DNA of 54,022 nucleotides from Verrucomicrobiia bacterium (GCA_036268155.1 DATAUQ010000042.1:1-54022); one strand, 5' to 3'; numbered from the stretch's first letter, positions 10,936 through 34,120 are shown. Translations and numbers: made by a program. Notes: generated by a model not told the origin, from the letters alone.

Positions 10936-10939
10936 TTTT

Positions 10940-11379
10940 AGCCACAGATGGACTCAGATGAAACACAGATAAAAGCGGCGAAGGATTATTCGCTACAGCC
11001 AATCACCGAACAATTAATTGGTGCGGCGTTTGAAGTTCATAATGTGCTTGGCTACGGATTTTTGGAAAAAGTTTATCAGCGGGCAATGCAGGTTGAATTG
11101 CAATCGCGTGGCGTCAAAGTTGAATTGGAACCGTTGATAAAAGTTCAGTTCAAAGGCGTGATTGTCGGCGATTACGCGGCGGACTTGCTTGTTGCCGATA
11201 AAATAATTGTGGAATTAAAAACTGACGCAACGTATCAGCCGGTTCACGAAGCGCAACTATTGAATGAGCTTCGCGGCACTGGAATTCGGCTTGGTTATCT
11301 CATTAACTTTGGACGAGAACGCGTCGAATACAAACGTATGGTTTTTTAATCTGTGTTTCATCTGTGAAAATCTGTGGCT
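10940..11379 (+). mobile_element. Palindromic 'CACAGAT' element carrying a GxxExxY gene
   Basis: The 31-nt arms AGCCACAGATGGACTCAGATGAAACACAGAT (10940-10970) and ATCTGTGTTTCATCTGTGAAAATCTGTGGCT (11349-11379) are inverted copies, about 26/31 identical. The same arms recur at 30511-30615. Confidence 0.65.
10948..11349 (+). CDS. GxxExxY protein (PD-(D/E)XK nuclease superfamily, PDDEXK_3-like)
   Basis: It contains the signature GFLEKVY and a nuclease-like D...E-x-K (DYAADLLVADKIIVELK), and is ~130 aa long. The start codon and first ~8 codons lie inside the left repeat arm. Confidence 0.8.
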   Translation: MDSDETQIKAAKDYSLQPITEQLIGAAFEVHNVLGYGFLEKVYQRAMQVELQSRGVKVELEPLIKVQFKGVIVGDYAADLLVADKIIVELKTDATYQPVHEAQLLNELRGTGIRLGYLINFGRERVEYKRMVF

Positions 11380-11394
11380 AAAAATTTTAGAAAA

Positions 11395-12159
11395 ATGAGC
11401 AAAACGATATTAGAAATCAAAAACCTCTCGGCGGGCGTCGAGGGCAAACAAATCCTCAAGGGCGTCAGCCTCACCATCAACGCCGGCGAAGTCCACGCCG
11501 TCATGGGCCCGAACGGCTCCGGCAAAAGCACGCTGGCCGCCGTGCTGGCCGGCCGCGACGGTTACAACGTGACCGGCGGCGAGGTGCTTTATTGCGGCAA
11601 GAACCTGCTCGACCTCGACCCCGAGGAACGCGCGCGCGAAGGTCTGTTCCTCGCGTTCCAATATCCGGTCGAGATTCCCGGCGTGAACAGCACTTATTTT
11701 CTCAAGGCCGCGTTCAACGAAATCCGCAAGCATCGCGGCGAGCCGGAACTCGACGCAATTGATTTTCTCGCGCTCGTGAAGGACAAGATGAAGCTGCTCG
11801 AACTCAAGGAAGATTTGCTCAAGCGCTCGGTCAACGAAGGTTTTTCCGGCGGCGAAAAAAAGCGCGCGGAAATTTTCCAGATGGCCGTGCTCGAACCCAA
11901 GCTCGCCATCCTCGACGAAACGGATTCCGGCCTGGACATTGATGCGCTCAAAGTCGTCTCGCACGGCGTCAACGCCCTGAAGCGCGCCGACAACGCGCAG
12001 CTTGTCATCACGCATTATCAGCGGCTGCTGAATTTCATCGTGCCGGATTTTGTGCACGTCCTGGTGGACGGCCACATCGTGAAAACCGGCGGCAAGGAAC
12101 TCGCGCTCGAACTCGAGGCGAAAGGTTACGATTGGATTTTGAAAACGGTCAATGCGTAA
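11395..12159 (+). CDS. sufC: Fe-S cluster assembly ATPase SufC
   Basis: It has the Walker A motif GPNGSGKST, the ABC signature FSGGEKKR and the Walker B motif LAILDETDSGLD. I prefer the ATG at 11395, because the listed GTG at 11374 lies inside the repeat arm. Confidence 0.95.
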   Translation: MSKTILEIKNLSAGVEGKQILKGVSLTINAGEVHAVMGPNGSGKSTLAAVLAGRDGYNVTGGEVLYCGKNLLDLDPEERAREGLFLAFQYPVEIPGVNSTYFLKAAFNEIRKHRGEPELDAIDFLALVKDKMKLLELKEDLLKRSVNEGFSGGEKKRAEIFQMAVLEPKLAILDETDSGLDIDALKVVSHGVNALKRADNAQLVITHYQRLLNFIVPDFVHVLVDGHIVKTGGKELALELEAKGYDWILKTVNA

Positions 12160-12473
12160 GATGTTGTGACGGAGACGTTCCCAATTCCAACAAAATCCAG
12201 AACACCGGCGCAGTTGCCAGCGTGAACAATCCTCCATCAAACCAAAATGCACCAGCAACGCCAAAGCTCCGGCGCGCAATCCAATTTGCAGGGAATCAGT
12301 AACTGCAACACGTCTCGCGCCAGCGGGACATTCTAAAAAAACGCCGGGCATCCTGTCAGCCGACGGGAACACTTCGAGCGCATAAAAGCCATGAACAACC
12401 ATTATTCGATCAGCGAGCTGTGCTGAAGCCTTTGACGTTTCGCGCAGCGGCTACCCCACGCAGTCCCTTTGTT

Positions 12474-13157
12474 TTATGGAAAAGTATTCCAGACCAATTC
12501 TGGATTGTCTGTGATTCCCACGGAAGTGCCGTTCCAGTATTCAGATTTTTTGAACCGCTTTGCGTGGCCGTCAAGGAAAGAAAAGTTCGCGCCATTATTA
12601 TGAATGTTGGTCACCGAACCGCCGTCACCAAGCGCCGGTTTTTGTCCATTGTCAAATAGCCAGACGACGGTCACAGGAGCCGCTGGAATGGCGTTGAGTT
12701 TGATATTCGGATGGTCGGTGCCGCCCGTGCCGTTGAATCCCTCGTTGAGCGCGTAATGAAAAAGATTGATGCTGGGTGCAACTACACGACGCGGATTTGC
12801 CGGACATAACCAGATTGTGCCTCTGACTTCAGCATCAGCATTGGTTCGCCATGGCATTTCGACATAAGGGAGTAGCCCTAGTGCCTGGGGGATTTGGATA
12901 TACCAAGCCTGATATGCGGGATTATTGAGATCAGTCGCAAGGGGCGTTGCCTTGCCTTCTGGCGGCAGATGGTCGTCATTGTCCGACACATAAACCTGCG
13001 TTGCCAATCCCCATTGCTTGAGGTTGTTAAGACATTGAGATGTCAGCGCCGTCGCCTTGGCCTTGCTCAACGCGGACAACAGCATCGCCGCCAGGATCGC
13101 GATGATGGCGATGACCACCAGCAATTCGATCAACGTGAATGCGCGCAAAATCTTCAT
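12474..13157 (-). CDS. Prepilin-type N-terminal cleavage/methylation protein with an H-X9-DG motif (DUF1559-like)
   Basis: The N-terminus [22 protein letters not shown] is a prepilin-type signal. The C-terminal [13 protein letters not shown] fits H-X9-DG, an architecture abundant in Verrucomicrobia and Planctomycetes. Confidence 0.85.
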
Positions 13158-13255
13158 CTGATTTTTTGAGCCTGAAGCGAATTATCCCAATGGCGGAATG
13201 ATTGGCAAAACAATTTCTGCCGGACTTCTGAACGATCGCCTGCTAATCTCCCGCC

Positions 13256-14302
13256 GTGCTTACACAAGACAACATCAAAAACGCGCTCGCAGCAGTCAAA
13301 TATCCCGGTTATTCGCGCGACATCGTTTCGTTCGACCTCGTCAAGGAGATTTCCGTCGCCAACGACTCGATCAGCGTGACGATGCAACTGACCTCGCCGA
13401 ATCCCGAAGCCGCGCAGCAGATCAAGGCCGAAAGCGAGCGCGTCCTGAAAAATCTTCCTGGCGTGAATCACGTTCACGTCGAGGTGCGTCAACCCGCCGC
13501 CGGATCAGCCGCGCCGACAAGTCCATTTGCAAACCAAAATAAAGTTTCCGGCGTAAAAAAAATTATCGCGATTGCCAGCGGCAAAGGCGGCGTGGGCAAA
13601 TCCACTTGCTCGGTGAATCTCGCGTGCGCGCTGACGCATCTAGGCGCAAAAGTCGGTTTGCTCGATTGCGACATTTACGGGCCGAGCATTCCATTGATGA
13701 TGGGCGTCCACGAAAAGCCGACCGTCAACGAAGCTGAGCGCCTCGTGCCGCCGTCCAATCACGGCGTGAAAGTGATGAGCATCGGGCTGCTGGTCACGGA
13801 CGACCAGCCGGTGATCTGGCGCGGGCCGATGATCACGAAGACCATCCAGCAATTTCTCCTCGCCGTCGAATGGGGCGAACTGGATTTTCTGCTCGTGGAT
13901 CTGCCGCCGGGCACGGGCGACGCGCAGCTTTCGCTCTGCCAGACCGTGCCGCTCGACGGCGGCGTCATCATCAGCACGCCGCAGGAGGCGTCGCTCGGCG
14001 TCGTGCGCAAAGGCATCGCGATGTTTCGGAAAGTGAACGTGCCGATCCTCGGCATAGTGGAAAACATGAGTTACTTCACCGCGCCAAACGGCGAGCGCGT
14101 GGAAATTTTCGGCCACGGCGGCGGCAAAGAGGAAGCCGCGCGGCAAAATGTTCCGTTCCTCGGCGAAGTCCCGATCTTCACCGAAATCCGAGAAGGCGGC
14201 GACTGCGGAATGCCGATTGTCGTTTCCACGCCGAACCACGCGGCGGGCAAGGCGTTCATTCAAATCGCGGAAACGCTGCGGAAAAAATTTAGTGCGGATT
14301 AA
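13256..14302 (+). CDS. apbC: Mrp/NBP35/ApbC-family Fe-S cluster carrier ATPase with an N-terminal DUF59 domain
   Basis: It has the deviant Walker A motif ASGKGGVGKST, the CxxC-equivalent region, and a DUF59-like N-terminus (NIKNALAAVKYPGYSRDIVSFDLVKEI). Confidence 0.9.
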   Translation: MLTQDNIKNALAAVKYPGYSRDIVSFDLVKEISVANDSISVTMQLTSPNPEAAQQIKAESERVLKNLPGVNHVHVEVRQPAAGSAAPTSPFANQNKVSGVKKIIAIASGKGGVGKSTCSVNLACALTHLGAKVGLLDCDIYGPSIPLMMGVHEKPTVNEAERLVPPSNHGVKVMSIGLLVTDDQPVIWRGPMITKTIQQFLLAVEWGELDFLLVDLPPGTGDAQLSLCQTVPLDGGVIISTPQEASLGVVRKGIAMFRKVNVPILGIVENMSYFTAPNGERVEIFGHGGGKEEAARQNVPFLGEVPIFTEIREGGDCGMPIVVSTPNHAAGKAFIQIAETLRKKFSAD

Positions 14303-14344
14303 ATTGCATGACGGAGCGGCTTAAAATTGATAAGTAGAATCAAT

Positions 14345-15232
14345 ATGGAACAAATGCGGAAACTCTTGGAGGAGGCTATACAGTTAGCTTTTAAGCAACT
14401 GCTGTCTGAAAAACACCTCTATCAATATGTGGAAGTTGACATCGGTTTTATTTCCACGGTTGCCGAGACGGTTCAAAAAGGCATGGGTGCTGCCATTCTA
14501 TCATCAGACCGCACGGTCAAACGCACGACGCTTGACGATGCAAAAAAATATTGCGTGGAGCAAACTGCGGTGATTTGGTGTCCGAGCAGGGCAATAACGA
14601 ACACAATAAATTTTCAATCCGGATTAGCTCCGATTTTATTTGAACTGCCTACGATAAATACGTTTTGTAACCATTGCGATGGAAGCCCGCCATTTAATCC
14701 AGTGGCTGAAAATTCTTTTTTGGCGCATGAGGCTAGACAAGACAAGATTTATCTCTTGGGATACCAGTGTCAGCAATGCAAAGGGCAACCAATTTATTTT
14801 CTAGTGTGCCGAGAAGGTTTGAAACTTCGTTTAGCTGGCCGATACCCGCTTGAAGTTTTACCAACTCCAAAAGTGCTACCGAAGTCAGTCAGCAAATACT
14901 ACGGCAATGCAATGATTGCTCACCATGCCGGCCAAACACTTGCCGGATTGTTTCTTTTGCGCGTATTCATAGAACAATTTTGGCGAATAGTTCCCGCAGT
15001 CAAAGAACTCGTTGCACTTCAACCAAAGGCAACCGGAGACGAACAAGGTGACGCATACCAAAGCAAATTGCCGCAGGATTTCAATTCACGTTTCCCGTCG
15101 CTCAAAGATATTTATGGAAAATTGAGCGCTGCCATTCATTCCGCCGATGAGAACGCTGCGCTGTTTGATGATTCGTGCGTTAAGATTGAAAAGCATTTTG
15201 AAGCGCGGCGGTTATTTGAAATTGGAAATTAA
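14345..15232 (+). CDS. AT-rich orphan: N-terminal unknown domain, a CxxC...CxxC zinc ribbon and a DUF4145-like C-terminal helical domain
   Basis: The segment CNHCDG-(~40 aa)-CQQCKG, then YPLEVLPTPKVLPKSVSKYYGNAMIAHHAGQTLAGLFLLRVFIEQF...IYGKLSAAIHS, follows the Zn-ribbon/DUF4145 layout as I remember it. The gene is visibly lower in GC than its neighbours. Confidence 0.5.
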   Translation: MEQMRKLLEEAIQLAFKQLLSEKHLYQYVEVDIGFISTVAETVQKGMGAAILSSDRTVKRTTLDDAKKYCVEQTAVIWCPSRAITNTINFQSGLAPILFELPTINTFCNHCDGSPPFNPVAENSFLAHEARQDKIYLLGYQCQQCKGQPIYFLVCREGLKLRLAGRYPLEVLPTPKVLPKSVSKYYGNAMIAHHAGQTLAGLFLLRVFIEQFWRIVPAVKELVALQPKATGDEQGDAYQSKLPQDFNSRFPSLKDIYGKLSAAIHSADENAALFDDSCVKIEKHFEARRLFEIGN

Positions 15233-15610
15233 CCTTCTGTTTTCGGGCATTTTCTGCGGTTCATTTTTCCATTGCGCGTCGTCAAGGCAAAGCCAACGTG
15301 GTATTTTGCGACGGCCACGTCGAATCGCCGACGTTGCAATTTCTTTTTGAAGACACCAGCGACGACGCCTTGTCCCGCTGGAACCGCGACCATCTGCCGC
15401 ACCGCGAAAAACTTTCACCGTGATTCTTCGTCCGCCAAAAAGCTGCGGAGCAGCGCGAGATAGTAGCCCACAGCCCGATCTGTGGGTAAAAGCGCCCAAC
15501 AGAAAAAGCTCCGGCAGGAGCGACAGAAAAACCACATCGCGCAAAGCATTTCTTCCGCCCCATCCGGGGCTTGATTCATTTGGCAACTAAACCCACGGTT
15601 TCACCTTGGG
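15233..15610. repeat. Non-coding cluster of degenerate REP-like repeats
   Basis: It contains GATAGTAGCCCACAGCCCGATCTGTGGGTAAAAGC...AGGAGCGACAG (15458-15526), a diverged copy of the 27831-27922 block. CCTTGGGCTATTTTC (about 15604-15618) resembles GCCCTGGGCTATTTTC at 29222-29237. No credible ORF is present. Confidence 0.6.
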
Positions 15611-16312
15611 CTATTTTCGTTCGCGCCATCCGGTGCTTGAACAAATTTCACGCGCACTGATGTGCGTCAAATCCGCCACCGCCCAATCCGGCTGGCATTT
15701 TTTCAATTCATCCAGCTTTGCGCCGCCAGTCGCCACGGCCAGAACTTTGGCGCCAATCGCTTTTCCGCAGCGAATGTCGAACGGCGTATCGCCGACCACG
15801 ACCATTTCTTCGCCGCGCAATCTTCTTCCCAGCACGCGATGGCTCCGGTCGTGCGCGGCAGCGGCGATCAAATCACGTTCCTCGTGGTCGTCGGCGAAAC
15901 CCCCGAACTCAAATTCTCCCCACAATCCAAAATGACGCAGCTTGATTTCCGCGCCGAGCCGGATGTTGCCGGTGAGCAGGCCGATGATCGGCGGATTCGG
16001 CAACGCACGCAGGTCACGCAGCATTTCCCAGACGCCGGGACAAATCTCGGTCTTGCTGCGCGCGAGAATCTGGTCAAGCCAGAAAATATAACGCTCGAAG
16101 AAGCGCGAGAAATTTTCCGGCGTGGCGGGAATGTCGTTATGTTTGAAAAATTCGCGGACAAGGCTGACATCCGTGCGCCCGGCGAACTTCATTTTTTCCA
16201 GGCCGTTGTGGGCGTTGAACTCGGTGGCAAAAGTTTTGGCGAAAGCCTGCGTGCCGGCGTGGCCCGTGTGGACGAGCGTGCCGTCAATGTCGAACAAAAC
16301 CAGTTTTACCAT
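15611..16312 (-). CDS. HAD-superfamily hydrolase (phosphoglycolate phosphatase-like)
   Basis: It has the HAD motif I LFDIDGTL, and the later GDTPFDI motif is present. Confidence 0.85.
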   Translation of the reverse strand: MVKLVLFDIDGTLVHTGHAGTQAFAKTFATEFNAHNGLEKMKFAGRTDVSLVREFFKHNDIPATPENFSRFFERYIFWLDQILARSKTEICPGVWEMLRDLRALPNPPIIGLLTGNIRLGAEIKLRHFGLWGEFEFGGFADDHEERDLIAAAAHDRSHRVLGRRLRGEEMVVVGDTPFDIRCGKAIGAKVLAVATGGAKLDELKKCQPDWAVADLTHISAREICSSTGWRERK

Positions 16313-16467
16313 GCGCGGAAAATATCAGAGCGGCGGAATCCGGCGAGATTTTAAGGACAAATTGCCCGTAGAAATTTTGCGGCAGCCGTTTTTGCCGACA
16401 GTTTTCAATTGCGCAAAGGCGGATTGCATGAAAAATTGGTGTCCGATTTGGAAGATTGAAATTTACC

Positions 16468-17823
16468 ATGACACAAACGCTAGAAAAAAAAAACGGTGAC
16501 CTGACCGTGACCGAACCGTTCCTCGAAAAATTCCGCCACTTCGAGTCCGGCGCGAAATCGTCGCTGCTGTCGTTCCGCAAAGCCGGCCTTGCGCTATTTG
16601 CTGAACTTGGTTTCCCGACGTTGCAGAATGAAGATTGGCGTTTCACAAACGTCGCGCCGCTCGCGAAGCTGCCGTTTGCGCCGCTGTTTGAAGCGCCCGC
16701 CGTCAACGGCGCGGAAACCAAAGCGTTGAATGAATTTGCTTTTTCAAAACTTTCGGGCACGCGACTGGTTTTTGTGAACGGCCATTATTCGCCAAAGATT
16801 TCGACCGTCGAAAAACTTCCGGCGGGCGTGAAGGTCGGCAATCTGGCGGCGGCTTTGACTTCCGATGCCGTGTTGGTGGAAAAATATCTGGGCCGTTGCA
16901 CGCTTGCGCAGGACAATGCGTTCGCTGCGTTGAACCAGGCGTTTTTTCTCGACGGCGCGTTTGTCCATGTGCCAAAAGGCGTGGATGTCGCCACACCGAT
17001 CCAGTTGGTTTACATCTGTTCGGCCAACGAAACCGGCGCGACGGTGCAGCCGCGCAACTTGATCGTCGTCGAGGCGAACAGCCGCGTGACGATTGTGGAA
17101 AGTTACATCACGACCACGGACAATGCGTATTTTACGAACGCGGTGACGGAAATTTTCGCGGGCGACAATGCGTTCGTCGAGCATCTGAAATTTCAGGACG
17201 AGGCGCAGGCGGCATTTCACATTGCGGCGATCCACGGCGAATTTGGGCGGGCGAGCAATGTGAACATCCATTCGTTCGCGCTCGGCGCGAAATTGTCGCG
17301 CAACAGCATCCGCACGAAGCTCGCGGGCGAAGGTCTTGAGTGCATCCTCAACGGACTTTACCTCACGCGCGGCGAGCAATTGGCCGACCATCACATGATT
17401 GTCGAGCACGCGCAGCCGAATTGCGCGAGCCACGAGTATTTCAATGGCATCCTTGACGACAAATCAAAGGGCGTCTTTCACGGACGAATTCTGGTTCAGC
17501 AAATCGCGCAGAAAACCGATGCGAAGCAGACGAATAAAAATCTGCTGCTCTCCGATGACGCGACCGCCGACACGAAGCCGCAACTGGAGATTTACGCCGA
17601 CGATGTGAAATGCACGCACGGCGCGACCATCGGGCAATTAAATGACGAGAGCATTTTTTATCTGCGCACGCGCGGCATCGGCACGGACATGGCGCGGCAG
17701 ATGTTGATCCACGCCTTCGCCGGCGAGATCATCGAGCGCATCAAGTGCGAACCGGCGCGCGAAGCCGTTGACAAGCTCGTGTGGGATCGCCTCGAAGCGA
17801 ATCCGCATTTGGCCGCAAAATAA
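16468..17823 (+). CDS. sufD: Fe-S cluster assembly protein SufD
   Basis: The C-terminal beta-helix region ...HMIVEHAQPNCASHEYFNGILDDKSKGVFHGRILV...KPQLEIYADDVKCTHGATIGQLNDESIFYLRTRGI is characteristic of SufD. Confidence 0.9.
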   Translation: MTQTLEKKNGDLTVTEPFLEKFRHFESGAKSSLLSFRKAGLALFAELGFPTLQNEDWRFTNVAPLAKLPFAPLFEAPAVNGAETKALNEFAFSKLSGTRLVFVNGHYSPKISTVEKLPAGVKVGNLAAALTSDAVLVEKYLGRCTLAQDNAFAALNQAFFLDGAFVHVPKGVDVATPIQLVYICSANETGATVQPRNLIVVEANSRVTIVESYITTTDNAYFTNAVTEIFAGDNAFVEHLKFQDEAQAAFHIAAIHGEFGRASNVNIHSFALGAKLSRNSIRTKLAGEGLECILNGLYLTRGEQLADHHMIVEHAQPNCASHEYFNGILDDKSKGVFHGRILVQQIAQKTDAKQTNKNLLLSDDATADTKPQLEIYADDVKCTHGATIGQLNDESIFYLRTRGIGTDMARQMLIHAFAGEIIERIKCEPAREAVDKLVWDRLEANPHLAAK

Positions 17824-17905
17824 TTTGCCACAGAGTCACAGAGACGCCGAGAAAAACTGAGAAATTAAATTTTTAACTCTGTGCCTCTGCGTCTCTGTGG
17901 CAAAT
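17823..17905. repeat. REP-like 'CACAGAG' palindromic hairpin filling the sufD-sufU spacer
   Basis: ATTTGCCACAGAG (17823-17835) pairs with CTCTGTGGCAAAT (17893-17905). Both arms continue with CACAGAGACGC/GCGTCTCTGTG-type units. Confidence 0.7.
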
Positions 17906-17911
17906 TGAATC

Positions 17912-18367
17912 ATGTTCGACGACATCAACGACCTTTATCAGCAGGTCATCCTTGACCACTGCAAGCAGCCGCGCAATTTCCACGAACTGCCCGCTGCCAC
18001 CTGCTCCGCGCAAGGGCGCAATCCGATCTGCGGCGACCAGTTGAAACTGTTTCTCACGCTCGACGGCGACACGATCAAGGACATCAGCTTCACCGGTTCG
18101 GGCTGCTGCATCTCCAAGGCGTCGGCGTCGCTGCTCACGGAATTTGCGAAGGGCAAAACGAAAACGGACGTGGAAAAAATATTCGGCCAGGTCCACGAAA
18201 TGGTCACGACGGGCAAAGTGAACGGCGACGTAGGCAAACTGACGGTGTTCGCGGGCGTCCACAAATATCCAGCGCGCGTGAAGTGCGCGATTCTCGCCTG
18301 GCACGCTGCAATGGCCGCGTTGAAAGGCGAGGCCGAGCCGGTAACGACGGAGTCGGAGCAGAATTGA
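17912..18367 (+). CDS. sufU: SUF-system NifU-family Fe-S scaffold SufU
   Basis: The sequence LYQQVILDHCKQPRNF...NPICGDQLKLFL...GSGCCISKASASLL...KYPARVKCAILAW contains the three conserved Cys positions of SufU/IscU-like proteins. Confidence 0.9.
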   Translation: MFDDINDLYQQVILDHCKQPRNFHELPAATCSAQGRNPICGDQLKLFLTLDGDTIKDISFTGSGCCISKASASLLTEFAKGKTKTDVEKIFGQVHEMVTTGKVNGDVGKLTVFAGVHKYPARVKCAILAWHAAMAALKGEAEPVTTESEQN

Positions 18368-18370
18368 CGT

Positions 18371-19495: not shown

Positions 19496-19518
19496 TTTCG
19501 CCTGCGTTTGCACTTGGG

Positions 19519-20961: not shown

Positions 20962-21058
20962 TTTGCGAAAGAATAGCGGATTTTCGGCACGCGCACAGCG
21001 AATTTTCATTATTTGACCTTGCCCGCTTCAACGCCTACACTCGCCGTCCTTTTTGAAC

Positions 21059-22657: not shown

Positions 22658-22700
22658 AAATTATTGAACTGAATTGAACCCAAACCAATCGAACGACACC

Positions 22701-23825
22701 ATGAACAAAATGAAACTGATTTTTCCCGCCGCGCTCGCCGCGATTATTTTCGGAACAGTCTCCGCTCAAGCGGCGGCTAATCCCGCCAATGACGCGCCGG
22801 CCATCGCTGACACAAACGCGACGCCGTCGGCAACGATGGCTTCATTGTTTGGCGACCCGGTCATCGCCAAGGGCAAGGGCTTTGAGATCAAGCAAAGCGA
22901 ATTGGACGAGGTCGTTCTGGGCATCAAGTCCGCCGCTGCCGCGCACAACGAAACAATTCCGCAGGAACAAATGACGGCCATTGAGGCGCAGATGCTCAAC
23001 CGTTTGATCCAGATCCAAATTTTATTGCAACAAGCCACTGACGCGGACAAGGCCGAGGGCAAAATGAAAGCCGACCTGCAAATCAGTAATTTGCTGGAAC
23101 ACGCCGGTTCGCAAGAGACCTTTGACCGCCAGTTGAAAGCGGTGGGCATGACGCCGGTGGAACTTCGCAGCAAAATCACGCAGGAAGCGACGGCGACGGC
23201 GACCTTGACGCGCGCATTGGGAATTTCCGTGACCGATGCCGAGGCAAAACAGTATTACGCCGATCATCCGGCGGAATTTGAACAGCCGGAAACCGTGCAT
23301 ATCCGGCACATTTTACTTTTGACCATGGATCCCGTGACCCACGCGCCATTGCCCGCCGATCAAACGCAGGCCAAGCGCAAACAGATTGACGACATCCTCA
23401 AGCGCGCGAAAGCCGGCGAAGATTTTGCGACGCTGGCCACGCAGTATTCCGAGGACACCAGCTCAAAGGAAAAAGGCGGTGAACTGCCGGAATTGCCGCG
23501 CGACGCCCAAGGCATCCCGCCGGAACTTTTAGCGGCGGCATTTTCATTGAACACGAATCAGATCAGTGATGTTGTCACAATGGATATGGGTTATGACATC
23601 ATCAAACTGCTCGACAAAACCCCGGCGCAAAAAGTGGATTACGCGAAAATCGCCGACAGGATCAAAGATTACCTCGTGCAGCAAAAAACCCAAAAACTCG
23701 CACCGGCTTACCTGAATGATCTGAAAAAAAACTCAGGATCTGAAATTCTTGATCCTGATTTGAAGGCGGCTGCGGATGCGGCGGCGCTCGCCGCCGCCAC
23801 CAACGCGCCCGCCGCGACGCCATGA
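22701..23825 (+). CDS. Periplasmic parvulin-type peptidyl-prolyl isomerase (SurA/PrsA-like)
   Basis: It has a signal peptide, a SurA-like N-terminal chaperone region and a PpiC rotamase core (VHIRHILL...AKAGEDFATLATQYSED...GGELPE...GYDIIKLL). Confidence 0.8.
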   Translation: MNKMKLIFPAALAAIIFGTVSAQAAANPANDAPAIADTNATPSATMASLFGDPVIAKGKGFEIKQSELDEVVLGIKSAAAAHNETIPQEQMTAIEAQMLNRLIQIQILLQQATDADKAEGKMKADLQISNLLEHAGSQETFDRQLKAVGMTPVELRSKITQEATATATLTRALGISVTDAEAKQYYADHPAEFEQPETVHIRHILLLTMDPVTHAPLPADQTQAKRKQIDDILKRAKAGEDFATLATQYSEDTSSKEKGGELPELPRDAQGIPPELLAAAFSLNTNQISDVVTMDMGYDIIKLLDKTPAQKVDYAKIADRIKDYLVQQKTQKLAPAYLNDLKKNSGSEILDPDLKAAADAAALAAATNAPAATP

Positions 23826-23873
23826 TTGCGCGGGCTTGCCAAATCTGTTTGGGTGCGTCATGCTGAAAACGTT

Positions 23874-24632
23874 ATGAAGACAAAGATTGGAATTGTCATT
23901 CTCGCCGCGGTCTGCGTCGGCTTGCTTATCGCCTTGATCGCCACCAAAAAGGCGGCAGACGACCAGCGCAAAAGTGATGAGGACCACATCCTTGATTTCT
24001 CCAACCAGTTGGTCACCGCCCATACCAGTCTTGACGATTTGAACCAGGTCAACCTCATGTTGACGAACGACCTCGATTCCACCCGCCAGTCGCTCGTGGA
24101 TGTTTCCAACAATCTTGCGGAAACCTCCAGCGCGCTGACGGACACGAAAGCCTCGTTGCAAGGCGCTCAGGACCAGATCACCAACCTGAACAGCCGCATC
24201 ACCGACCTGGAAGCGCAAAACAAATCACTCGATGACCGCGCCACCGCGCTCGCCAGCACCATTCAGGCGCTGGATTCCCAGATCGCCGCCACGCAGGCGC
24301 AACTCGCCACGTCCGAGACCAACAACACCTTCCTCACCGCCGAGCTGCAAAAGCAGATGGCGCAAAGAGCCGAGCTGGAACACAAGTTCAATGACATTGA
24401 CCAAGTCCGCACGCAGGTCAAAAAATTACGCGACGAAGCGTTCGTCGCCCGCCGCCTGCAGTGGATGAGCAGTGGAAACAACCCTGCCCAGCCGCAAAAG
24501 GGCGCTCAACTTTTGATGCAACACACAGCGACCTCGACGAACACTGCCTCGCAATATGACCTGAACGTCGAAGTCGGCTCCGACGGCTCGATCCACGTCA
24601 TTCCGCCGGCCACCAATTCACCGGCGCACTGA
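23874..24632 (+). CDS. Membrane-anchored coiled-coil protein, function unknown
   Basis: It has an N-terminal TM segment (IGIVILAAVCVGLLIALIA) followed by ~180 aa of heptad-like Q/L/T-rich sequence. Confidence 0.6.
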   Translation: MKTKIGIVILAAVCVGLLIALIATKKAADDQRKSDEDHILDFSNQLVTAHTSLDDLNQVNLMLTNDLDSTRQSLVDVSNNLAETSSALTDTKASLQGAQDQITNLNSRITDLEAQNKSLDDRATALASTIQALDSQIAATQAQLATSETNNTFLTAELQKQMAQRAELEHKFNDIDQVRTQVKKLRDEAFVARRLQWMSSGNNPAQPQKGAQLLMQHTATSTNTASQYDLNVEVGSDGSIHVIPPATNSPAH

Positions 24633-24669
24633 ACCCGGTTTCGCGGAAAAAATTCCGCCGTAAATTTTC

Positions 24670-24987
24670 ATGCCGACCTACGAATACGCCTGCGAAAAAT
24701 GCGGCCACGAATTTGAAATCCTCCAGTCCATGTCCGCCCGGTCATTGAGCACCTGTCCCAAGGAACTTTGCGGCCAAAAAAAATGGGGACGCGGCAACGT
24801 GAAAAGAAAAATCAGCACCGGCGGCGGATTGCTTTTCAAAGGCAGCGGTTTTTACATCACCGACTATCGCAGCGAAAAATACAAGGACGCGGCCAAAAAA
24901 GATTCCGCGCCCGCCAAGGCTCCCGCTGGCGACGCCAAACCCGCCCCGGCACCGGCCAAACCGGCGACCAAGGCAGATAAAAAATGA
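24670..24987 (+). CDS. FmdB-family zinc-ribbon protein (CxxC_CxxC_SSSS)
   Basis: It begins MPTYEYACEKCGHEFEILQSM...CPKELCG and has an Ala/Pro/Lys-rich tail. Confidence 0.8.
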   Translation: MPTYEYACEKCGHEFEILQSMSARSLSTCPKELCGQKKWGRGNVKRKISTGGGLLFKGSGFYITDYRSEKYKDAAKKDSAPAKAPAGDAKPAPAPAKPATKADKK

Positions 24988-26432
24988 AAACGCCGCTGTA
25001 TCGTTGCACCGTTGCATCGTTGCATCGGTTTCACGATTCAACGATCCAACGATTCAACGGTTTCGCGATCCGGCCCGCTTTTATTCTTTGCGTCCTGTTT
25101 TTTTCACTGCACGCCTGCGCGCAATTTTCCCCGCCGGGACAAAATTCAGCCCGCAGCATTTCCGGCCAGTTCATCGTCAACGGCACGGCGCAATTTTCCC
25201 CGCTGGCCAGCTCACCGCGCATCGCCGCCGATACAAATCTGGTCCGGCTTGAACCCGCCCTGCTCGCTGTTTCCGCCGAACGTGTCAAACAATTGCTCTG
25301 GCACCGGCTCGAGATCAAGACCGACATCCCGTGGCGCGGCCAGGTTTTTTTTGCGCTGCATCCGGCCAGGTCAACGGACGAGGACATCACCATTTTTTCC
25401 CGGCATTCCGCCGATGGCTGGAATTATCAAGTCCAGTTGCCCGACGTCTTGTCACGCACACGCCTCGCGCAGGCGCTGACCGGCGTGCTGTTGCTGGAAT
25501 TCGCCAACCGCAATGCGTCGGCGCATTCCGCCGAAATTCCCGCGTGGCTCACCGACGGCCTCTCGCAGCAACTGCTCGCCGCCGGTTCGCCCGAGTTTAT
25601 TTTGTCCTCGCCGGACAAAGTCGTGAACGGCCTGCCGGCCACGCGGATTGATTTGACTGAACGCAGCGTGGATTCGCTGGCTGCCGCCCGGCGAGTGCTG
25701 AAAAATTCCGCCATGCTGACGTTCGAGGAATTAAGCTGGCCCACCGACGCGCAATTGAACGGCGGCGACGGCGGTATATATCCCGCCAGCGCACAGGTTT
25801 TTACGGACGCGCTTTTGGATTTGAAGAACGGCCCCGCGAATTTGCGCGCGATGCTGGAAACGCTGCCGCAATTTTACAACTGGCAGCTCGCCTTTCAGTC
25901 GGCGTTCCGCGCGGCCTTTCCAAGGCCGCTGGACTTGGAAAAATGGTGGGCGTTGCAGGTCGTCAGCTTCGCCGCCCATGATCCGGGTCCGGGCTGGACA
26001 CCGATGGTGAGCCGCGAAAAACTCGACGAGATTTTGAGCGTGCCGGTGGAGCTGCGCACCGCATCAAACAGCCTGCCCGCGCACGCGGAAATTTCCCTGC
26101 AAGCCGTCATCCGCAATCTGGATGCCGCGCGGCAGGCGGAAATTCTCCAGACCAAATTGCGCGACCTCGGGCTGGCGCAACTCCGCGTGGCCCCGCAATT
26201 CGCCGCCTTGACCGATGGCTACCGGCGCGCGATTGGCGGTTATCTGGGCGAACTTCACGTCACCACGTCTGCGTCGGGCCGGAACGGACACGCGTCGGCC
26301 ATGCTGAAGAGAACCAGCACGCGCGACACGCTGAAAAAACTCGACGCGCTTGACGCCCAGCGGCGAACGATTGAATCCACAGTCAAACCCGACATATTCG
26401 TCCCGCCAAGCCTTGCGACCGTGAAATTTTAA
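24984..26432 (+). CDS. Secreted hypothetical protein (482 aa)
   Basis: The ATG overlaps the preceding stop (ATGA). It has a hydrophobic signal-like segment AFILCVLFFSLHACAQ. Codons ~6-29 are encoded by a REP-like repeat. I recognise no family. Confidence 0.6.
   Translation: MKTPLYRCTVASLHRFHDSTIQRFNGFAIRPAFILCVLFFSLHACAQFSPPGQNSARSISGQFIVNGTAQFSPLASSPRIAADTNLVRLEPALLAVSAERVKQLLWHRLEIKTDIPWRGQVFFALHPARSTDEDITIFSRHSADGWNYQVQLPDVLSRTRLAQALTGVLLLEFANRNASAHSAEIPAWLTDGLSQQLLAAGSPEFILSSPDKVVNGLPATRIDLTERSVDSLAAARRVLKNSAMLTFEELSWPTDAQLNGGDGGIYPASAQVFTDALLDLKNGPANLRAMLETLPQFYNWQLAFQSAFRAAFPRPLDLEKWWALQVVSFAAHDPGPGWTPMVSREKLDEILSVPVELRTASNSLPAHAEISLQAVIRNLDAARQAEILQTKLRDLGLAQLRVAPQFAALTDGYRRAIGGYLGELHVTTSASGRNGHASAMLKRTSTRDTLKKLDALDAQRRTIESTVKPDIFVPPSLATVKF
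25001..25070. repeat. REP-like 'TCGTTGCA / TCAACGAT' imperfect palindrome lying inside a coding N-terminus
   Basis: TCGTTGCACCGTTGCATCGTTGCATCGG...CGATTCAACGATCCAACGATTCAACGG forms the palindrome. Related units occur at 37376-37437 and 48309-48330. Confidence 0.65.
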
Positions 26433-26463
26433 CTTGAACGCGCTTGGATTGAAATCGGCCAAC

Positions 26464-26491
26464 TTGACAGACGACAATTCGATTTTATAGT
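26464..26491 (+). promoter_or_regulatory. Near-consensus sigma-70-type promoter candidate for kamA
   Basis: TTGACA (26464-26469), a 16-nt spacer and TATAGT (26486-26491) are present. The first ATG at 26506 would leave only a very short leader. Confidence 0.35.
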
Positions 26492-26505
26492 GAATCCACT
26501 TGAAC

Positions 26506-27750
26506 ATGGAGACTGAAAATTCATCCACCAACGGCGACGAGCCGCCTTCGCGCAGTTCGTTACAAACGCTCAAAGAATTCAAATCTGCGGGACGCGGCTT
26601 TTGGAGCGACGTTCCTGATTCGGATTGGAACGACTGGAAATGGCAGTTGAAACACCGCATCACGACGGCGGAGCAATTGCAAAAATTTCTGCCCACTCTT
26701 ACGCCCGAAGAATTTGCGGGCGCGAAACTCGCGAATACAAAACTCGCGCTTGCCATCACGCCGTATTTTTTCAACCTGATTGATCCGGCGGATGAAAATT
26801 GTCCGGTCCGGCTGCAAGTCATTCCCAAGCTCGCCGAATCCCACACCGCGCCGTGGGAGATGAGCGATCCCGTCGGCGAAGATTCGCACTCGCCCGTGCC
26901 GGGACTTGTGCATCGTTATCCCGACCGCGTTTTGTTTTTGGTGACGGATCGCTGCGCCTCTTATTGCCGTTATTGCACGCGCTCGCGGCTCGTGAGCAAT
27001 GCGAGCGGCTACGATTTTCATCCCGAATTCGACAAGCAGATCGCCTACATCGCCGCGCATCCCGAAATCCGCGACGTGCTTTTGAGCGGCGGCGACCCGC
27101 TTTTGTTGAGCGACGACAAGCTGGAAAATCTCTTGAGCCGCCTGCGCGCGATTCCGCACGTTGAATTTCTGCGCATCGGTTCGCGAATCCCGACCTTTTT
27201 GCCGCAACGCATCACGCCCGAACTTTGCGCGATGCTGAAAAAATTTCATCCGCTGTTCATGAGCGTCCACTCGAACCATCCGCGCGAACTCACGACGGAA
27301 GTGCGCGACGCGCTGGGCCGCCTCGCCGATGCCGGCATTCCGCTCGGCAACCAGAGCGTTTTGCTCAAGCACGTCAACGACGACGCGACCGTAATGAAGG
27401 CGCTCGTCCAGAAACTTTTGATGTGCCGCGTGAAGCCGTATTATCTTTACCAGTGCGATTTGATTTCCGGCTCGGCCCATCTGCGCGCGAGCGTGCGCCA
27501 GGGCATCGAGATCATGCAGCAATTGCGCGGACACACGACCGGCTACGCCGTGCCGCAATACGTCATTGACGCGCCCGGCGGCGGCGGCAAAGTGCCAGTC
27601 AATCCAGAATACGTCTTGAGCCACAACGCCGACCGCGTGGTGCTGCGCAACTACGAGGGAAAAATTTTCGAATATCCCGAAGCCGCCGATGGCACGCCGC
27701 TCTCCAAACCGCCGAAAGAAATTGAAGAGCCGGAGCTTTGCAAGTGTTGA
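26506..27750 (+). CDS. kamA: KamA-family radical SAM aminomutase (lysine 2,3-aminomutase-like)
   Basis: It has the radical SAM cluster CASYCRYCTRS, GGDPLLL, and a PLP-binding-region pattern. The ~415-aa length is typical of KamA rather than the shorter EpmB. Confidence 0.85.
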   Translation: METENSSTNGDEPPSRSSLQTLKEFKSAGRGFWSDVPDSDWNDWKWQLKHRITTAEQLQKFLPTLTPEEFAGAKLANTKLALAITPYFFNLIDPADENCPVRLQVIPKLAESHTAPWEMSDPVGEDSHSPVPGLVHRYPDRVLFLVTDRCASYCRYCTRSRLVSNASGYDFHPEFDKQIAYIAAHPEIRDVLLSGGDPLLLSDDKLENLLSRLRAIPHVEFLRIGSRIPTFLPQRITPELCAMLKKFHPLFMSVHSNHPRELTTEVRDALGRLADAGIPLGNQSVLLKHVNDDATVMKALVQKLLMCRVKPYYLYQCDLISGSAHLRASVRQGIEIMQQLRGHTTGYAVPQYVIDAPGGGGKVPVNPEYVLSHNADRVVLRNYEGKIFEYPEAADGTPLSKPPKEIEEPELCKC

Positions 27751-27922
27751 ACCGCGAACCACGCGAAATACGCGAACGGTTTTCAACGTAAAACTTCTGA
27801 CACGAATTCCACGAATTCACGCAAATTAAAAGCCTGTAAGGCTGACAGATAATAGCCCAGGGCAAACGCAGTGCCGCCCTGGGTTAAACGTCAAAAATTT
27901 CCAAGCCCTGTAAGAGCGGCAG
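27750..27922. repeat. Left composite inverted repeat flanking the Mrr-like orphan
   Basis: It has three sub-motifs: A at 27750-27778, B at 27799-27822, and C at 27831-27922 (containing the CCCAGGGC...GCCCTGGG hairpin). All three recur inverted at 29164-29328. Confidence 0.7.
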
Positions 27923-27967
27923 AAGTCTCGACAATGAATCGCGGAAGACGTAAAAGATTGTCCGACT

Positions 27968-29152
27968 ATGGCACTCACGGAACTTTGGAAAACCGCGCAT
28001 AAAGAAATTCAAGACAAGCACGTCCAGCAAGTCATTGGATTTGCTGGCGACGGTAAACTTCGCGACGGCGGGGCTGCTTCAAAAGAATTCCGTGATTTCC
28101 TCGCGCTTGTTCCATCCAATTTTCTTTCTCGATACGCAAATGACTGTTTGACGGATAAATTCGATAACAGCGGATTGGCATTGCAAGATGTCATCAATGA
28201 GGTTGGAACACGTCTTGGATTTCGCGTCGAGCAAGGCCGTTATCGTGGGACGCAGGGCGAGATTGGTTTCGATGGCCTCTGGATTTCGCCAGATGAAAAT
28301 GGACTCGTTGTTGAAGTTAAAACGACCGATGCTTACCGGATAGATTTGGAAACGGTTGCGACCTACCGGCGCAATCTGATTGCCGATGGGCGGATTAAGC
28401 AAACCAATTGCTCCATCCTGATTATCGTTGGGCGCACTGACACGGGTGATCTTGAAGCTCAAGTTCGCGGTTCTCGTCACGCGTGGGATATTCGGCTTAT
28501 CAGTATTGATGGGCTGCTTCGTCTCATGCACCTCAAAGAAGAATTGGACGACCCGAAAATCATGGGTAAAATTCGTCAAGTCCTGACGCCTCAAGAATTC
28601 ACAAAAGTAGACGGAATCATTGACCTTGTCTTTTCAACCACGGCAGACGTTAAGAAAGAGCAAGAACTTACGGAAGTAGCTGACGAAGAAGAAGACGAAC
28701 AGCACAAGACGAAGTTCACTCCACTCAATTTTCGCGATGCGTGCGCAATCAGAGTTCAAAAGCATCTTGGCCAGCCGTTGGTCAAACGATCTTCTGCCGT
28801 TTACTCATCGCCAGATGAAAATCTGGCTGTCGTTTGTATTAACTCACGAGAGTATAAAAACGCCAAGCGTTCAGGTCATTCGGGGTTTTGGTTTGCCTTT
28901 CATCCTCATCAGCGAGATTTGCTTCAGAATCATAAGCAGACATTTGTTGCTCTTGGATGCGGTTCGGCAGATACCATTCTTCTAATTCCTGGAAAGATAT
29001 TTATCAAATGGTTGGACCGATTCCATAAAACCGAACGTGACGACAGATATTATTGGCATATCCGAATTCACAAAGACAAAGAAGGCTATTTGTTGCGAGT
29101 TAAAAAAGGCGCGGATGCTGTTCGGCTTAACGAGTATTTGCTAAAAAACTGA
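27968..29152 (+). CDS. Two-domain orphan: N-terminal Mrr-like PD-(D/E)XK nuclease core plus an unassigned C-terminal module
   Basis: GEIGFDGLWISPDENGLVVEVKTTD gives D...E-x-K, followed by CSILIIVGRTD as in Mrr_cat. An acidic linker (EVADEEEDEQ) follows, then a C-terminal ~150 aa (HSGFWFAFHPHQ...YYWHIRIHKD) that I cannot place. The gene is AT-richer than its neighbours. Confidence 0.55.
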   Translation: MALTELWKTAHKEIQDKHVQQVIGFAGDGKLRDGGAASKEFRDFLALVPSNFLSRYANDCLTDKFDNSGLALQDVINEVGTRLGFRVEQGRYRGTQGEIGFDGLWISPDENGLVVEVKTTDAYRIDLETVATYRRNLIADGRIKQTNCSILIIVGRTDTGDLEAQVRGSRHAWDIRLISIDGLLRLMHLKEELDDPKIMGKIRQVLTPQEFTKVDGIIDLVFSTTADVKKEQELTEVADEEEDEQHKTKFTPLNFRDACAIRVQKHLGQPLVKRSSAVYSSPDENLAVVCINSREYKNAKRSGHSGFWFAFHPHQRDLLQNHKQTFVALGCGSADTILLIPGKIFIKWLDRFHKTERDDRYYWHIRIHKDKEGYLLRVKKGADAVRLNEYLLKN

Positions 29153-29163
29153 AAAGATAATTT

Positions 29164-29328
29164 CTGTCGCCCTTACAGGCTTAAATTTTTTGGACGATTA
29201 ACCCAGGGCGGCGCGCTGCTTGCCCTGGGCTATTTTCTTTCGGGCTTACAGCCCTGTTTAATTCGCGTTCGCGTGTTTGGCGTGGTTCGCGGTTGAAATT
29301 CTCCGCGTTAATCCGTGTAATTCGTGTC
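29164..29328. repeat. Right composite inverted repeat flanking the Mrr-like orphan
   Basis: It holds reverse-complement copies of block C (29164-29254), motif A (29266-29294) and motif B (29305-29328). Confidence 0.7.
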
Positions 29329-29403
29329 AAAAACTTTGTGCCTTTGTGTCTTGGTGGTTAAATTGAAATTTACTTCCGCGCATTTTTCTGCCAGATTGTT
29401 TCC

Positions 29404-29589
29404 ATGAGCGGAATCACTTTCATGGTGGATGAACGCGGTCAGAAAACGGCAGCCGTCATTGACCTGCGGAAGCATGAACAGCTTTGGGAAGATTTCCACG
29501 ACGCGCTACTAGCCAAGTCGCGCGCCCGCGAGCCGCGTGAGAGTCTCGCCTCCGTCCGGCAACGGCTAAAATCCCGTCGGAATGGCTGA
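29404..29589 (+). CDS. Type II antitoxin (small, precedes and overlaps a RelE/ParE toxin gene)
   Basis: This is a 61-aa protein whose 3' end overlaps the toxin start by 8 nt. Its ...AAVIDLRKHEQLWEDFHDALLA... pattern resembles antitoxins I recall paired with RelE/ParE. A TAAATT-ga-AATTTA palindrome lies upstream at 29359-29372. Confidence 0.6.
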   Translation: MSGITFMVDERGQKTAAVIDLRKHEQLWEDFHDALLAKSRAREPRESLASVRQRLKSRRNG

Positions 29590-29848
29590 TTACTCCATCA
29601 GCTTCGCCCGCTCCGCGCGCAAGGAATTGGAACATCTTTCTGGCGATGTCGCTGAACGGATTCTGGCGAAGATTGAATTGTTGGCTGGAAATCCTCGGCC
29701 TGTCGGCGTCATCAAACTTCACGGGCAGAAAAATCTCTGGCGAATGCGCGTCGGCGATTATCGCGTAGTTTATTCGATTGATGATTTTTCCAAGGCGGTT
29801 GACGTTTCCGTGATTCGTCATCGGCGCGATGTTTATCGGGATTTGTAA
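29582..29848 (+). CDS. relE: RelE/ParE-family type II toxin (mRNA interferase)
   Basis: This 88-aa protein reads YSISFARSARKELEHL...IELLAGNPRP...KLHGQKNLWRMRVGDYRVVYSIDD...VDVSVIRHRRDVY, which fits the RelE/StbE pattern. Confidence 0.8.
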   Translation: MADYSISFARSARKELEHLSGDVAERILAKIELLAGNPRPVGVIKLHGQKNLWRMRVGDYRVVYSIDDFSKAVDVSVIRHRRDVYRDL

Positions 29849-29851
29849 GTT

Positions 29852-30532
29852 ATGTTCCGTGAATCGCTCCAGACCAAAACCGCGCGGCTGAAAAAAATCA
29901 TCGCCGGTTTCCAAAAGACTTATCCCGATGCGCACTGCGAGCTGACTTACGCGAACCCGCTCCAATTGCTCGTCGCCGTGATCCTTTCCGCGCAATGCAC
30001 GGACAAGCGCGTCAACCTCATCACACCGGAATTGTTCAAAAAATATCACACCGCAAAAGATTTCGCGGACGCGCCGCGCGCGGAACTGGAGCAGTTCATC
30101 AAGTCCGCCGGATTTTTCCGCAGCAAGGCGAAGAACATCCAGAATTGCTGCCACAAACTCGTCGAGCTTCACGCCGACGAAGTGCCGCGCACGATGGAGG
30201 AATTGATCCAGCTCGACGGCGTCGGGCGCAAGACGGCAAACGTCGTCCTGGGCAACGCGTTCGATGTGGTGGTCGGCGTCGTCGTGGACACGCACATGAT
30301 GCGATTGTCGCACCGGCTCGGTTTGGTCACGGAACGGACGCCGGAAAAAATCGAACTCGCGCTGATGAAGTTGCTGCCGCAGAAATATTGGCTGGATTTC
30401 AGCCACTGGCTCGTCTGGCACGGACGCCGTCGCTGCTTCGCGCGCAAGCCAGATTGCGCGAATTGTGAAGTGCTGAAATGGTGTCCGCGAATCGGGGTGA
30501 AAGAAGTTTTAGCCACAGATGGGCACAGATGA
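29852..30532 (+). CDS. nth: Endonuclease III (DNA glycosylase/AP lyase)
   Basis: It has the HhH-GPD motif (LDGVGRKTANVVL), catalytic VDTH, and the 4Fe-4S cluster loop CFARKPDCANCEVLKWC. The last ~7 codons and the stop lie within a repeat arm. Confidence 0.92.
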   Translation: MFRESLQTKTARLKKIIAGFQKTYPDAHCELTYANPLQLLVAVILSAQCTDKRVNLITPELFKKYHTAKDFADAPRAELEQFIKSAGFFRSKAKNIQNCCHKLVELHADEVPRTMEELIQLDGVGRKTANVVLGNAFDVVVGVVVDTHMMRLSHRLGLVTERTPEKIELALMKLLPQKYWLDFSHWLVWHGRRRCFARKPDCANCEVLKWCPRIGVKEVLATDGHR

Positions 30533-30615
30533 AACACAGATAAGGTATCCGCAGATTTCGCTGATTGGCGCAGATAAATTTTCCATCTGTGTTTCATCTG
30601 TGTAAATCTGTGGCT
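30511..30615. mobile_element. Cargo-less (MITE-like) 105-bp copy of the 'CACAGAT' palindromic element
   Basis: The arms AGCCACAGATGGGCACAGATGAAACACAGAT (30511-30541) and ATCTGTGTTTCATCTGTGTAAATCTGTGGCT (30585-30615) are almost identical to the arms around the GxxExxY gene. Only 43 nt lie between them. Confidence 0.7.
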
Positions 30616-30617
30616 GA

Positions 30618-34003: not shown

Positions 34004-34009
34004 AACAAA

Positions 34010-34091
34010 TTTTGAGTTTTAAGTTTTTAATTTTTAGTTGAAGCGCGTGGCATCAGCTTCAACTAAAAACTTAAAATTAAAAATTCAAAAC
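34010..34091. repeat. AT-rich long hairpin (REP-like / terminator-like)
   Basis: A perfect 14-bp stem TTTTTAGTTGAAGC (34031-34044) / GCTTCAACTAAAAA (34056-34069) is present. The flanking arms extend imperfectly with TTTAAG/TTAAAA units. Confidence 0.6.
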
Positions 34092-34120
34092 TTCCTGCGC
34101 ATTTGGCACATTGAACCGCG

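Follow-up and report, generated by a model that had tools for sequence, protein, structure and literature searches.

We analyzed a stretch of 54,022 nucleotides (nt) from a Verrucomicrobiia bacterium (GCA_036268155.1 DATAUQ010000042.1:1-54022), hereafter called the window, and in particular its positions 10,940 to 30,615, where two palindromic elements, A and B, each enclose a single gene. The window is part of a metagenome draft genome (MAG), G000, of 2.26 Mb and 76% completeness. Element A consists of arrays of seven-base units around a gene of the GxxExxY family, and element B contains hairpin modules of the type found beside Y1 transposase genes, around a gene encoding a restriction endonuclease-like protein. 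We consider it probable that the window holds two unrelated repeat systems: heptamer-array cassettes, represented by element A and the gene-less hairpins, and a cassette bounded by Y1-type modules, represented by element B. It should be noted that the gene names sufB, sufC, kamA and nth are labels taken from a preliminary description of the window, assigned without a family search of those genes.

Element A (10936-11383) has two arms of 39 nt, 10936-10974 and 11345-11383, that are 87% complementary and enclose a single open reading frame (ORF). In brief, the left arm, read on the plus strand, begins immediately after the stop codon of sufB (ORF 9487-10935) and contains approximately three spaced heptamers, CACAGAT, CTCAGAT and CACAGAT. 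The ORF (10948-11349, plus strand) encodes P0001, a GxxExxY protein of 133 amino acids (aa; PF13366, E 6e-37; TIGR04256, E 3e-38), in which residues D79, E89 and K91 are present, and its ATG is provided by the left arm. The right arm, also given on the plus strand, is an inverted copy of the left and ends approximately 11 nt upstream of the ATG of sufC at 11395. The element is thus located between two protein-coding genes, outside any 23S ribosomal RNA (rRNA) helix, and Rfam reported no rRNA in the window. P0001 gave no match in PADLOC or PHROGs, and a sequence search found no solved structure for the GxxExxY family. We found no literature on repeats for GxxExxY or PDDEXK_3 proteins, and PF13366 is listed as "function unknown".

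The sufB-sufC junction differs between relatives. In two other families of the order the spacer is 13-15 nt. Within the genus it contains, depending on the species, hairpins of CACAGAT, CGCGGAT, CACGAAT, CAGGAA or CGTCCTC units, the arms together with a GxxExxY gene (G000, G011, G002 and G006), or toxin-antitoxin-like and other small cassettes, the last two judged by reading the ORFs. Presence and absence polymorphism, which the preliminary description had proposed to look for, is thereby found, as the junction exists with the full cassette, with a gene-less hairpin, with other hairpins and with the short spacer. No target sequence common to the spacers of the relatives was found. Units of the element A family also occur at different junctions with unrelated flanks, and the unit including its arms is copied at other loci in six relatives. 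We also observed that the last 55-100 nt of sufB are duplicated beside the inserts at this junction in G003 (L018), G006 (L031) and G012 (L021).

The generality of element A-type cassettes was assessed within the phylum. All three PF13366 genes of G000 are flanked by inverted arms of approximately three spaced units of 7-9 nt, and the unit is different for each gene. In the genus, the flanking inverted repeats of 33 of 51 GxxExxY loci score 18 or higher, compared with 0 of 160 shifted controls. Across the phylum (28 genomes), inverted arms with a score of at least 14 were found in 18 of 28 cases and in 0 of 111 shifted controls. GxxExxY genes are strongly and specifically enclosed by heptamer arrays, and the units share the common pattern CRCNRAK. 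The catalytic residues are retained: among 77 GxxExxY proteins, D79 is present in 76, E89 in 73 (the other four have D) and K91 in all 77.

The arms and the GxxExxY gene are inherited as one unit. Arms are shared in 98% of protein pairs that are at least 70% identical, and in at most 3% of pairs below 50% identity. In a maximum-likelihood tree of 48 GxxExxY proteins, a single branch (support 100/96) sets G-ending heptamers apart. In the same tree, single heptamer types correspond to subclades in which hosts from different classes of the phylum are mixed. Six short repeat copies that stay uniform over such distances argue for a functional tie to the protein, and a protein-repeat partnership is plausible for element A. 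We also searched for covariation between residues and bases, and only heptamer position 7 was above the permutation null (residues 41, 125 and 127). Because the tree shows one deep split, this covariation is not independent evidence of co-evolution.

Element B (27747-29337) has a single ORF, 27968-29152, surrounded by several inverted pairs formed between 27747-27924 and 29158-29337. Read on the plus strand, it opens with an outer heptamer arm, X (27747-27778), of CGCGAAC-type units, which includes the stop codon of the upstream gene. This is followed by a second heptamer array, Y (27790-27822), of CACGAAT-type units, and by a left set of Y1-transposase-type hairpin modules (27823-27924; GCCTGTAAGGC..., AATAGCCCAGGG...CCCTGGGTT, AAGCCCTGTAAGAGCGGCAGAA). 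Beyond the gene are an inverted copy of the module set (29158-29255), the partner of X (X', 29266-29297) and the partner of Y (Y', 29305-29337), which lies outside X'. The order is X, Y, module, gene, module', X', Y', and the X and Y pairs are therefore interleaved; the nested arrangement first described for the outer motifs had to be corrected. Both module sets match Rfam family RF01687, the left one on the minus strand (27830-27883) and the right one on the plus strand (29202-29255). We saw no direct duplication in the sequence flanking element B. At its right edge, a half-arm of another heptamer family (CACCAAG/CACAAAG, minus-strand reading) stands alone at 29330-29362, and full hairpins of this family are found at C95:40465-40532 and C120:35372-35443.

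The cargo of element B, P0002 (27968-29152, plus strand), is a protein of 394 aa with a restriction endonuclease-like fold in its N-terminal half and a beta-rich domain of unknown kind in its C-terminal half. It has no match in Pfam, NCBIfam, PADLOC or PHROGs, and a sequence search found no solved structure. P0002 belongs to a large unnamed family, with 3768 matches that form 1348 clusters at 50% identity. Its AlphaFold model (pLDDT 79) resembles N.BspD6I, HindIII, FokI and PspGI with E values of 3e-4 to 1e-2 and low TM-scores of approximately 0.3, and residues D102, E116 and K118 are invariant in 24 homologues. Based on the fold match and the invariant residues, we assign P0002 with moderate confidence as a PD-(D/E)XK-type protein. 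The family was found in only three of 61 genomes of the genus and mostly lacks B-type arms. A 96% identical protein is encoded on metagenome contigs in another neighbourhood, with RelB/YafQ on one side and aconitase on the other, and this copy also lies between the same modules, accompanied by parts of the outer heptamer arms. An 85% homologue is located in a tight operon and has no arms.

These results bear out much of what the preliminary description had reported for the locus. Both gene-bearing palindromes are real, with computed inverted arms, and each has one PD-(D/E)XK-type cargo, assigned by PF13366 and TIGR04256 for element A and, at moderate strength, by fold and residues for element B. 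The catalytic D/E/K triad, whose loss in most copies would have spoken for dead nucleases, is kept in GxxExxY proteins and is invariant in the P0002 homologues. A gene-less derivative is present at 30504-30618. The window does lack a transposase: whole-genome family scans gave no match to Y1_Tnp, integrase, rve or TnpB on its contig.

Transposases are present elsewhere in the genome. G000 encodes four clear Y1_Tnp genes at three distinct sites, together with one weak match, all on contigs other than that of the window. Each clear gene is bordered on both sides by inverted hairpin modules. For the Y1 genes on C129/C2 and C104, each flank can be aligned with each inner arm of element B, one module after another. 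In brief, element B and the Y1 flanks share, in the same order, a small GTAA/GTAG hairpin ending in CGACAGA, a "AATAGCCCA-stem-TGGGTT" hairpin, a spacer of approximately 15 nt and a second small hairpin ending in ...CAGAA, after which the gene begins. The spacing before the start codon is equal for P0002 and the transposase genes. Scores above the gathering threshold of RF01687 (Acido-Lenti-1) were obtained for both arms of element B, beside a Y1 gene (L165) and in the cassettes of two relatives. The stem sequences differ between the arms of element B and the Y1 flanks, and element B represents a sub-type of its own. In element B, a restriction endonuclease-like orphan gene occupies the place of the transposase gene between Acido-Lenti-1 modules, and this whole module-bounded unit sits between heptamer arms.

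A genome-wide list of inverted pairs in G000 shows what single-gene palindromes with long arms enclose. Five contain Y1 transposase or Y1-like genes, two of these being one site in two strains; the remainder contain three GxxExxY genes, one PF05635 gene, P0002 and one gene of unknown kind. Wider-spaced arm pairs span longer runs of ORFs that look ordinary, their kind judged without a family search. This list rules out that gene-bearing palindromes carry only nucleases. The general rule drawn in the preliminary description, that nucleases act instead of a transposase on the palindromic repeats of this genome, is refuted by the Y1 genes and by the alignment of their flanking modules with the inner arms of element B.

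Three further observations concern the Y1 genes and the genome that carries them. The same loci are present in two versions in G000, on C129 and C2 and on C42 and C5, so that the MAG must be a mixture of two related strains or species. On C129 and C2 the Y1 gene at an apparent oligopeptide-transporter ATPase junction is present twice with high similarity, and a second copy of the 3' part of sufB in G000 is 86% identical. The third transposase site, G000:C58:12900-14300 (L167), has a different hairpin type (GTCGCnCCTACGGnGC). There, the gene and its hairpins are bracketed by two direct copies of approximately 45 nt that contain a right-hand heptamer arm (TTTCATCCGTGTTCAATCCGTGGCTAAAAAATCC), and one of the copies is split by a 29 nt insert. 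The alanyl-tRNA synthetase gene on G000:C74 (L168:1049-5056), encoding 1335 aa, contains in-frame palindromic repeat clusters at about 1947-2085, 2620-2757 and 3875-4048. A Y1_Tnp-like domain is located between the first two of these clusters (residues 383-471, 22.5 bits, cut-off 23), and the reading frame runs through clusters and domain without a stop.

Module pairs of the B type have variable contents in the relatives. They enclose a DndB-like protein or a protein with REase_MTES_1575 and DUF3320 domains (both Pfam-checked) and, judged by eye, a 933-aa restriction-modification-like ORF or a three-gene methylase-like block. Some enclose no ORF, as in the gene-less inverted pairs L158 and L164. 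At the site of element B itself, four relatives have four unrelated inserts. The arms of element B are thus a generic vehicle or landing pad for defence-type genes and are not maintained by P0002; the earlier suggestion that a nuclease maintains these repeats is unsupported for element B, as pairs of these modules also surround cargo other than nucleases, or none.

Such a landing pad could be filled without a dedicated enzyme. B-like cassettes may move by homologous recombination between repeat copies, or by a "long target duplication" route, the repeats being recombination-prone landing sites. The different insert at the junction of element B in each relative fits this explanation, as do the duplicated 3' end of sufB beside inserts in G003, G006 and G012, the direct copies bracketing the Y1 gene on C58, and the gene-less module pairs L158 and L164, which could serve as targets. 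However, the modules around P0002 equal those around transposase genes down to the start-codon spacing, the P0002 unit has the same ends in two unrelated neighbourhoods, and no direct flanking duplication was seen around element B. We regard movement without a dedicated enzyme as less likely than the reading of two systems given above.

The cassette design of element A is not confined to nuclease genes. Genes of PF05635 ("23S rRNA IVS protein", a four-helix-bundle family; IVS, intervening sequence) are commoner in the genus than GxxExxY genes, and 20 of 30 such loci have inverted arms with a score of at least 14, compared with 1 of 114 shifted controls. Their flanking arrays are built of GTCGAGA, GTTGAGA, CCAGAAT and other units, and no top 7-mer is common to the PF05635 and GxxExxY arrays. 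Repeat units that are specific to the cargo fit with each protein recognising its own repeats. The PF05635 cassette of G000 is located at C144:330-759, and its gene-less form is found in the window at 34007-34093.

The preliminary description explained both palindrome families by homing: their PD-(D/E)XK cargo would cut a hairpin or an empty site, and repair would copy the element in. Both cargoes indeed have a nuclease fold and intact catalytic residues, two of the cargoes of B-type modules (P0002 and REase_MTES_1575) are PD-(D/E)XK proteins, and filled, gene-less and short-spacer states all occur at the sufB-sufC junction. The elements are also positioned exactly at gene ends, which had been read as site-specific insertion, but the insertion sites have no recognisable common target beyond T-rich and A-rich edges. 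Similarly, the expected association of nuclease genes with repeats holds for GxxExxY (33/51 loci against 0/160 controls), but the PF05635 family, which is not a nuclease family, has the same cassette design (20/30 against 1/114). The arms of element B are moreover Y1-transposase-type modules that also surround DndB-like, methylase-bearing or no cargo, and the P0002 family mostly lacks them. We therefore find homing of both families by their cargo very improbable, and cleavage, homing or repair-mediated copying by element A is unsupported.

The gene-less copy of element A (30504-30618, plus strand) is a hairpin of the CACAGAT family with two 34 nt arms and a 43 nt loop, which itself contains CGCAGAT-type heptamers. 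On one side this hairpin overlaps the preceding ORF's stop codon, and on the other it directly borders the following ATG. Two others, neither assigned to a strand, are found at 17822-17906, with the GxxExxY-type unit CACAGAG, and at 34007-34093, with TTTTTAG/TTTTAAG units that are the same as those around the PF05635 gene at G000:C144:330-759. Loops of CRCRGAT hairpins in G000 house other hairpins and a repetitive extragenic palindrome (REP), in nested arrangement. Many heptamer arms genome-wide open with TTTTARCC and close with GGYTAAAA, and a palindromic TA or TTAA target duplication is therefore indistinguishable from a longer inverted repeat. Short arrays of the ATCGTTG/AATCGTTGA type are also present in the window at 24996-25027, 37362-37401 and 48298-48329 and are related to hairpins on C48, C86, C97 and C168.

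The position of these hairpins invites another explanation, in which the heptamer hairpins are prior structures of the host, such as terminators or sites of RNA stability or processing. Selfish genes would then land in their loops, and the arms would act on RNA, for example as RNase III stems that release or silence the cargo message. The hairpins are found just past stop codons inside operons, and their loops commonly serve as landing sites, with other hairpins, a REP and the entire B cassette nested in them. In addition, P0001 has its start codon within the left arm, and the Coxiella IVS has been documented to be cut out by RNase III (PMC4990558). However, arm mismatches compatible with G-U pairing number 49 on the sense strand and 54 on the antisense strand, and as there is no bias, RNA-level selection is not evident. 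The arms and the protein are co-inherited, heptamer types track the protein tree throughout the phylum, and different cargo families use different repeat units. Independent host hairpins would not readily account for co-inheritance and cargo-specific units, and we consider this explanation unlikely.

We return to the reading of two unrelated repeat systems. The first has two inverted arms, each with approximately three spaced units of the CRCNRAK pattern, and a small GxxExxY gene in the loop, and in this lineage the same design also houses PF05635 genes with units of their own. We suggest that the cargo protein binds its own heptamers, that GxxExxY proteins perhaps cut them, and that this recognition may keep the six short copies uniform over long times. 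The cassettes would insert at the ends of genes and in hairpin loops, and later loss of the gene would leave the hairpins behind. In the second system, element B would be passively carried, by a Y1 transposase that acts in trans or else through recombination among dispersed copies, and would not mobilise itself. As no transposase with the stem of element B was found, action in trans is something we infer, and recombination is a live alternative.

A more far-reaching proposal is that GxxExxY proteins are sequence-specific nucleases or binders of their own seven-base unit and form, with their arms, a class of mobile cassettes, based on a nuclease and free of a transposase, that seeds the many heptamer hairpins of these genomes, with the four-helix-bundle cassettes, including the IVS, as a parallel branch. 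We put this forward tentatively and hold it to be rather doubtful.

Several observations weigh against the reading of two systems as set out here. With respect to the heptamer cassettes, the split between G- and T-ending heptamers is one event on the tree and reflects co-inheritance, not independent co-evolution, and two GxxExxY clades that are only 43-48% identical both have CACAGAT arms. In four genomes of the genus that are at least 90% complete, PF13366 is without a match, although one of the four (G009) carries a heptamer hairpin between sufB and sufC. G000 has approximately 90 CRCRGAT arms and approximately 24 hairpins of this subfamily, and only one GxxExxY gene with such arms. The loops of these hairpins, 4-110 nt long, are all different, which makes the hairpins unlike copies of one miniature inverted-repeat transposable element. 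No internal sequence common to the gene-less copies, or shared with the full copy, was found among the approximately 24 CRCRGAT hairpins of G000.

With respect to element B, a Y1 gene flanked by its own stem (CCCAGGGC) was found neither in G000, at 76% completeness, nor in eight sampled loci of the genus. A transposase elsewhere in the genome with a matching hairpin had been named in the preliminary description as evidence against nuclease-driven repeats; the module type does match, by alignment and by RF01687, but a transposase with the stem of element B was not found. The "ATAGCCCA...TGGGT" module has approximately 12 true copies in G000, among them a solitary one at 15591-15614 on the minus strand; this copy number is below the tens to hundreds of REP/RAYT systems. 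The Y1 genes pass the NCBIfam IS200 model with 66-80 bits (cut-off 55) and score 25-37 bits with the RAYT model (cut-off 80). To our knowledge, IS200-type transposition does not use inverted ends. Given the IS200 assignment and the copy number, we describe the system as REPtron-like in layout and not as a typical high-copy REP/RAYT system. The B sub-type of the module occurs 0-23 times per genome elsewhere in the genus. A candidate pair in G119, with transposase-like spacing and considered as a Y1 gene with the stem of element B, proved to be a single module.

Three results are new here: the arms of element B match the flanks of Y1 transposases and the Acido-Lenti-1 family of Rfam, the cargo between B-type modules is variable and of defence type, and the heptamer type is congruent with the GxxExxY protein tree. 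For annotation, two systems of similar appearance in raw sequence are told apart, and the Acido-Lenti-1 "RNA" motif behaves here as an end module of Y1-transposase elements. Module pairs with defence-type genes suggest a simple vehicle for such genes. PF13366 and PF05635 are very large families without known function, and each has its own type of repeat.

The two systems can be compared with several that are already described. Homing endonuclease genes, including those of the PD-(D/E)XK type such as I-Ssp6803I, resemble element A in that a nuclease gene is the sole cargo of a small insert that is present or absent among relatives. In contrast, we see no intron or intein here and no conserved target common to the insertion sites, and homing endonuclease genes are not characterised by long arms built of repeats. 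The Ssn/NTS system (PMC11893778) offers a published precedent for the layout. Ssn proteins are small GIY-YIG single-strand nucleases that cut the dispersed hairpin repeat around them (PMC11893778). As in element A, copies of a dispersed hairpin repeat stand on either side of a small nuclease gene, they far outnumber the gene, and repeat variants accompany protein variants. The fold of GxxExxY is however PD-(D/E)XK and not GIY-YIG, and the arms are heptamer arrays instead of one conserved hairpin.

Element B and the Y1 genes are comparable to REP/RAYT systems (REPtron, REPIN) and to TIRYT (PMC3733652, PMC3116915). In both, a Y1 (HUH) gene lies between inverted hairpin modules, the modules are also dispersed singly and as inverted pairs, the location is just past gene ends, and the small hairpin contains a GTAG or GTAA motif. 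The system described here differs in having approximately 12 module copies and transposases assigned to the IS200 type. It also differs in that the modules of element B, and those in related genomes, hold defence-type cargo in place of a transposase, an arrangement of which we found no description in the literature consulted. RF01687, whose gathering threshold is exceeded by the inner arms of element B and by a Y1 gene flank, was originally put forward as a small RNA present in Acidobacteria and Lentisphaerae (Weinberg et al. 2010, PMC2864571). In the present case it occurs in a verrucomicrobial lineage, as inverted pairs around genes, and fits the end of a mobile element acting at the DNA level better than a small RNA.

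Finally, element A is a cassette of the kind represented by those intervening sequences of 23S rRNA that contain an ORF, known from helix 45 of Coxiella burnetii and from Leptospira, in which the ORF encodes S23p (PF05635; PMC4990558). Both consist of inverted arms with a small ORF between them. In the Coxiella IVS, three tandem GACAGAT heptamers precede the S23p ORF (PMC4990558); they are close to the CACAGAT units of element A, and the PF05635 genes of the genus studied here have the same layout. Unlike the IVS, element A lies between two protein-coding genes and not in rRNA, its cargo is a GxxExxY protein with a nuclease fold, and its family has many dispersed gene-less copies. The Coxiella IVS is documented to be excised by RNase III (PMC4990558). 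A link between protein and heptamer, as we suggest for the cassettes of this lineage, could also account for the nature of the intervening sequences in 23S rRNA.

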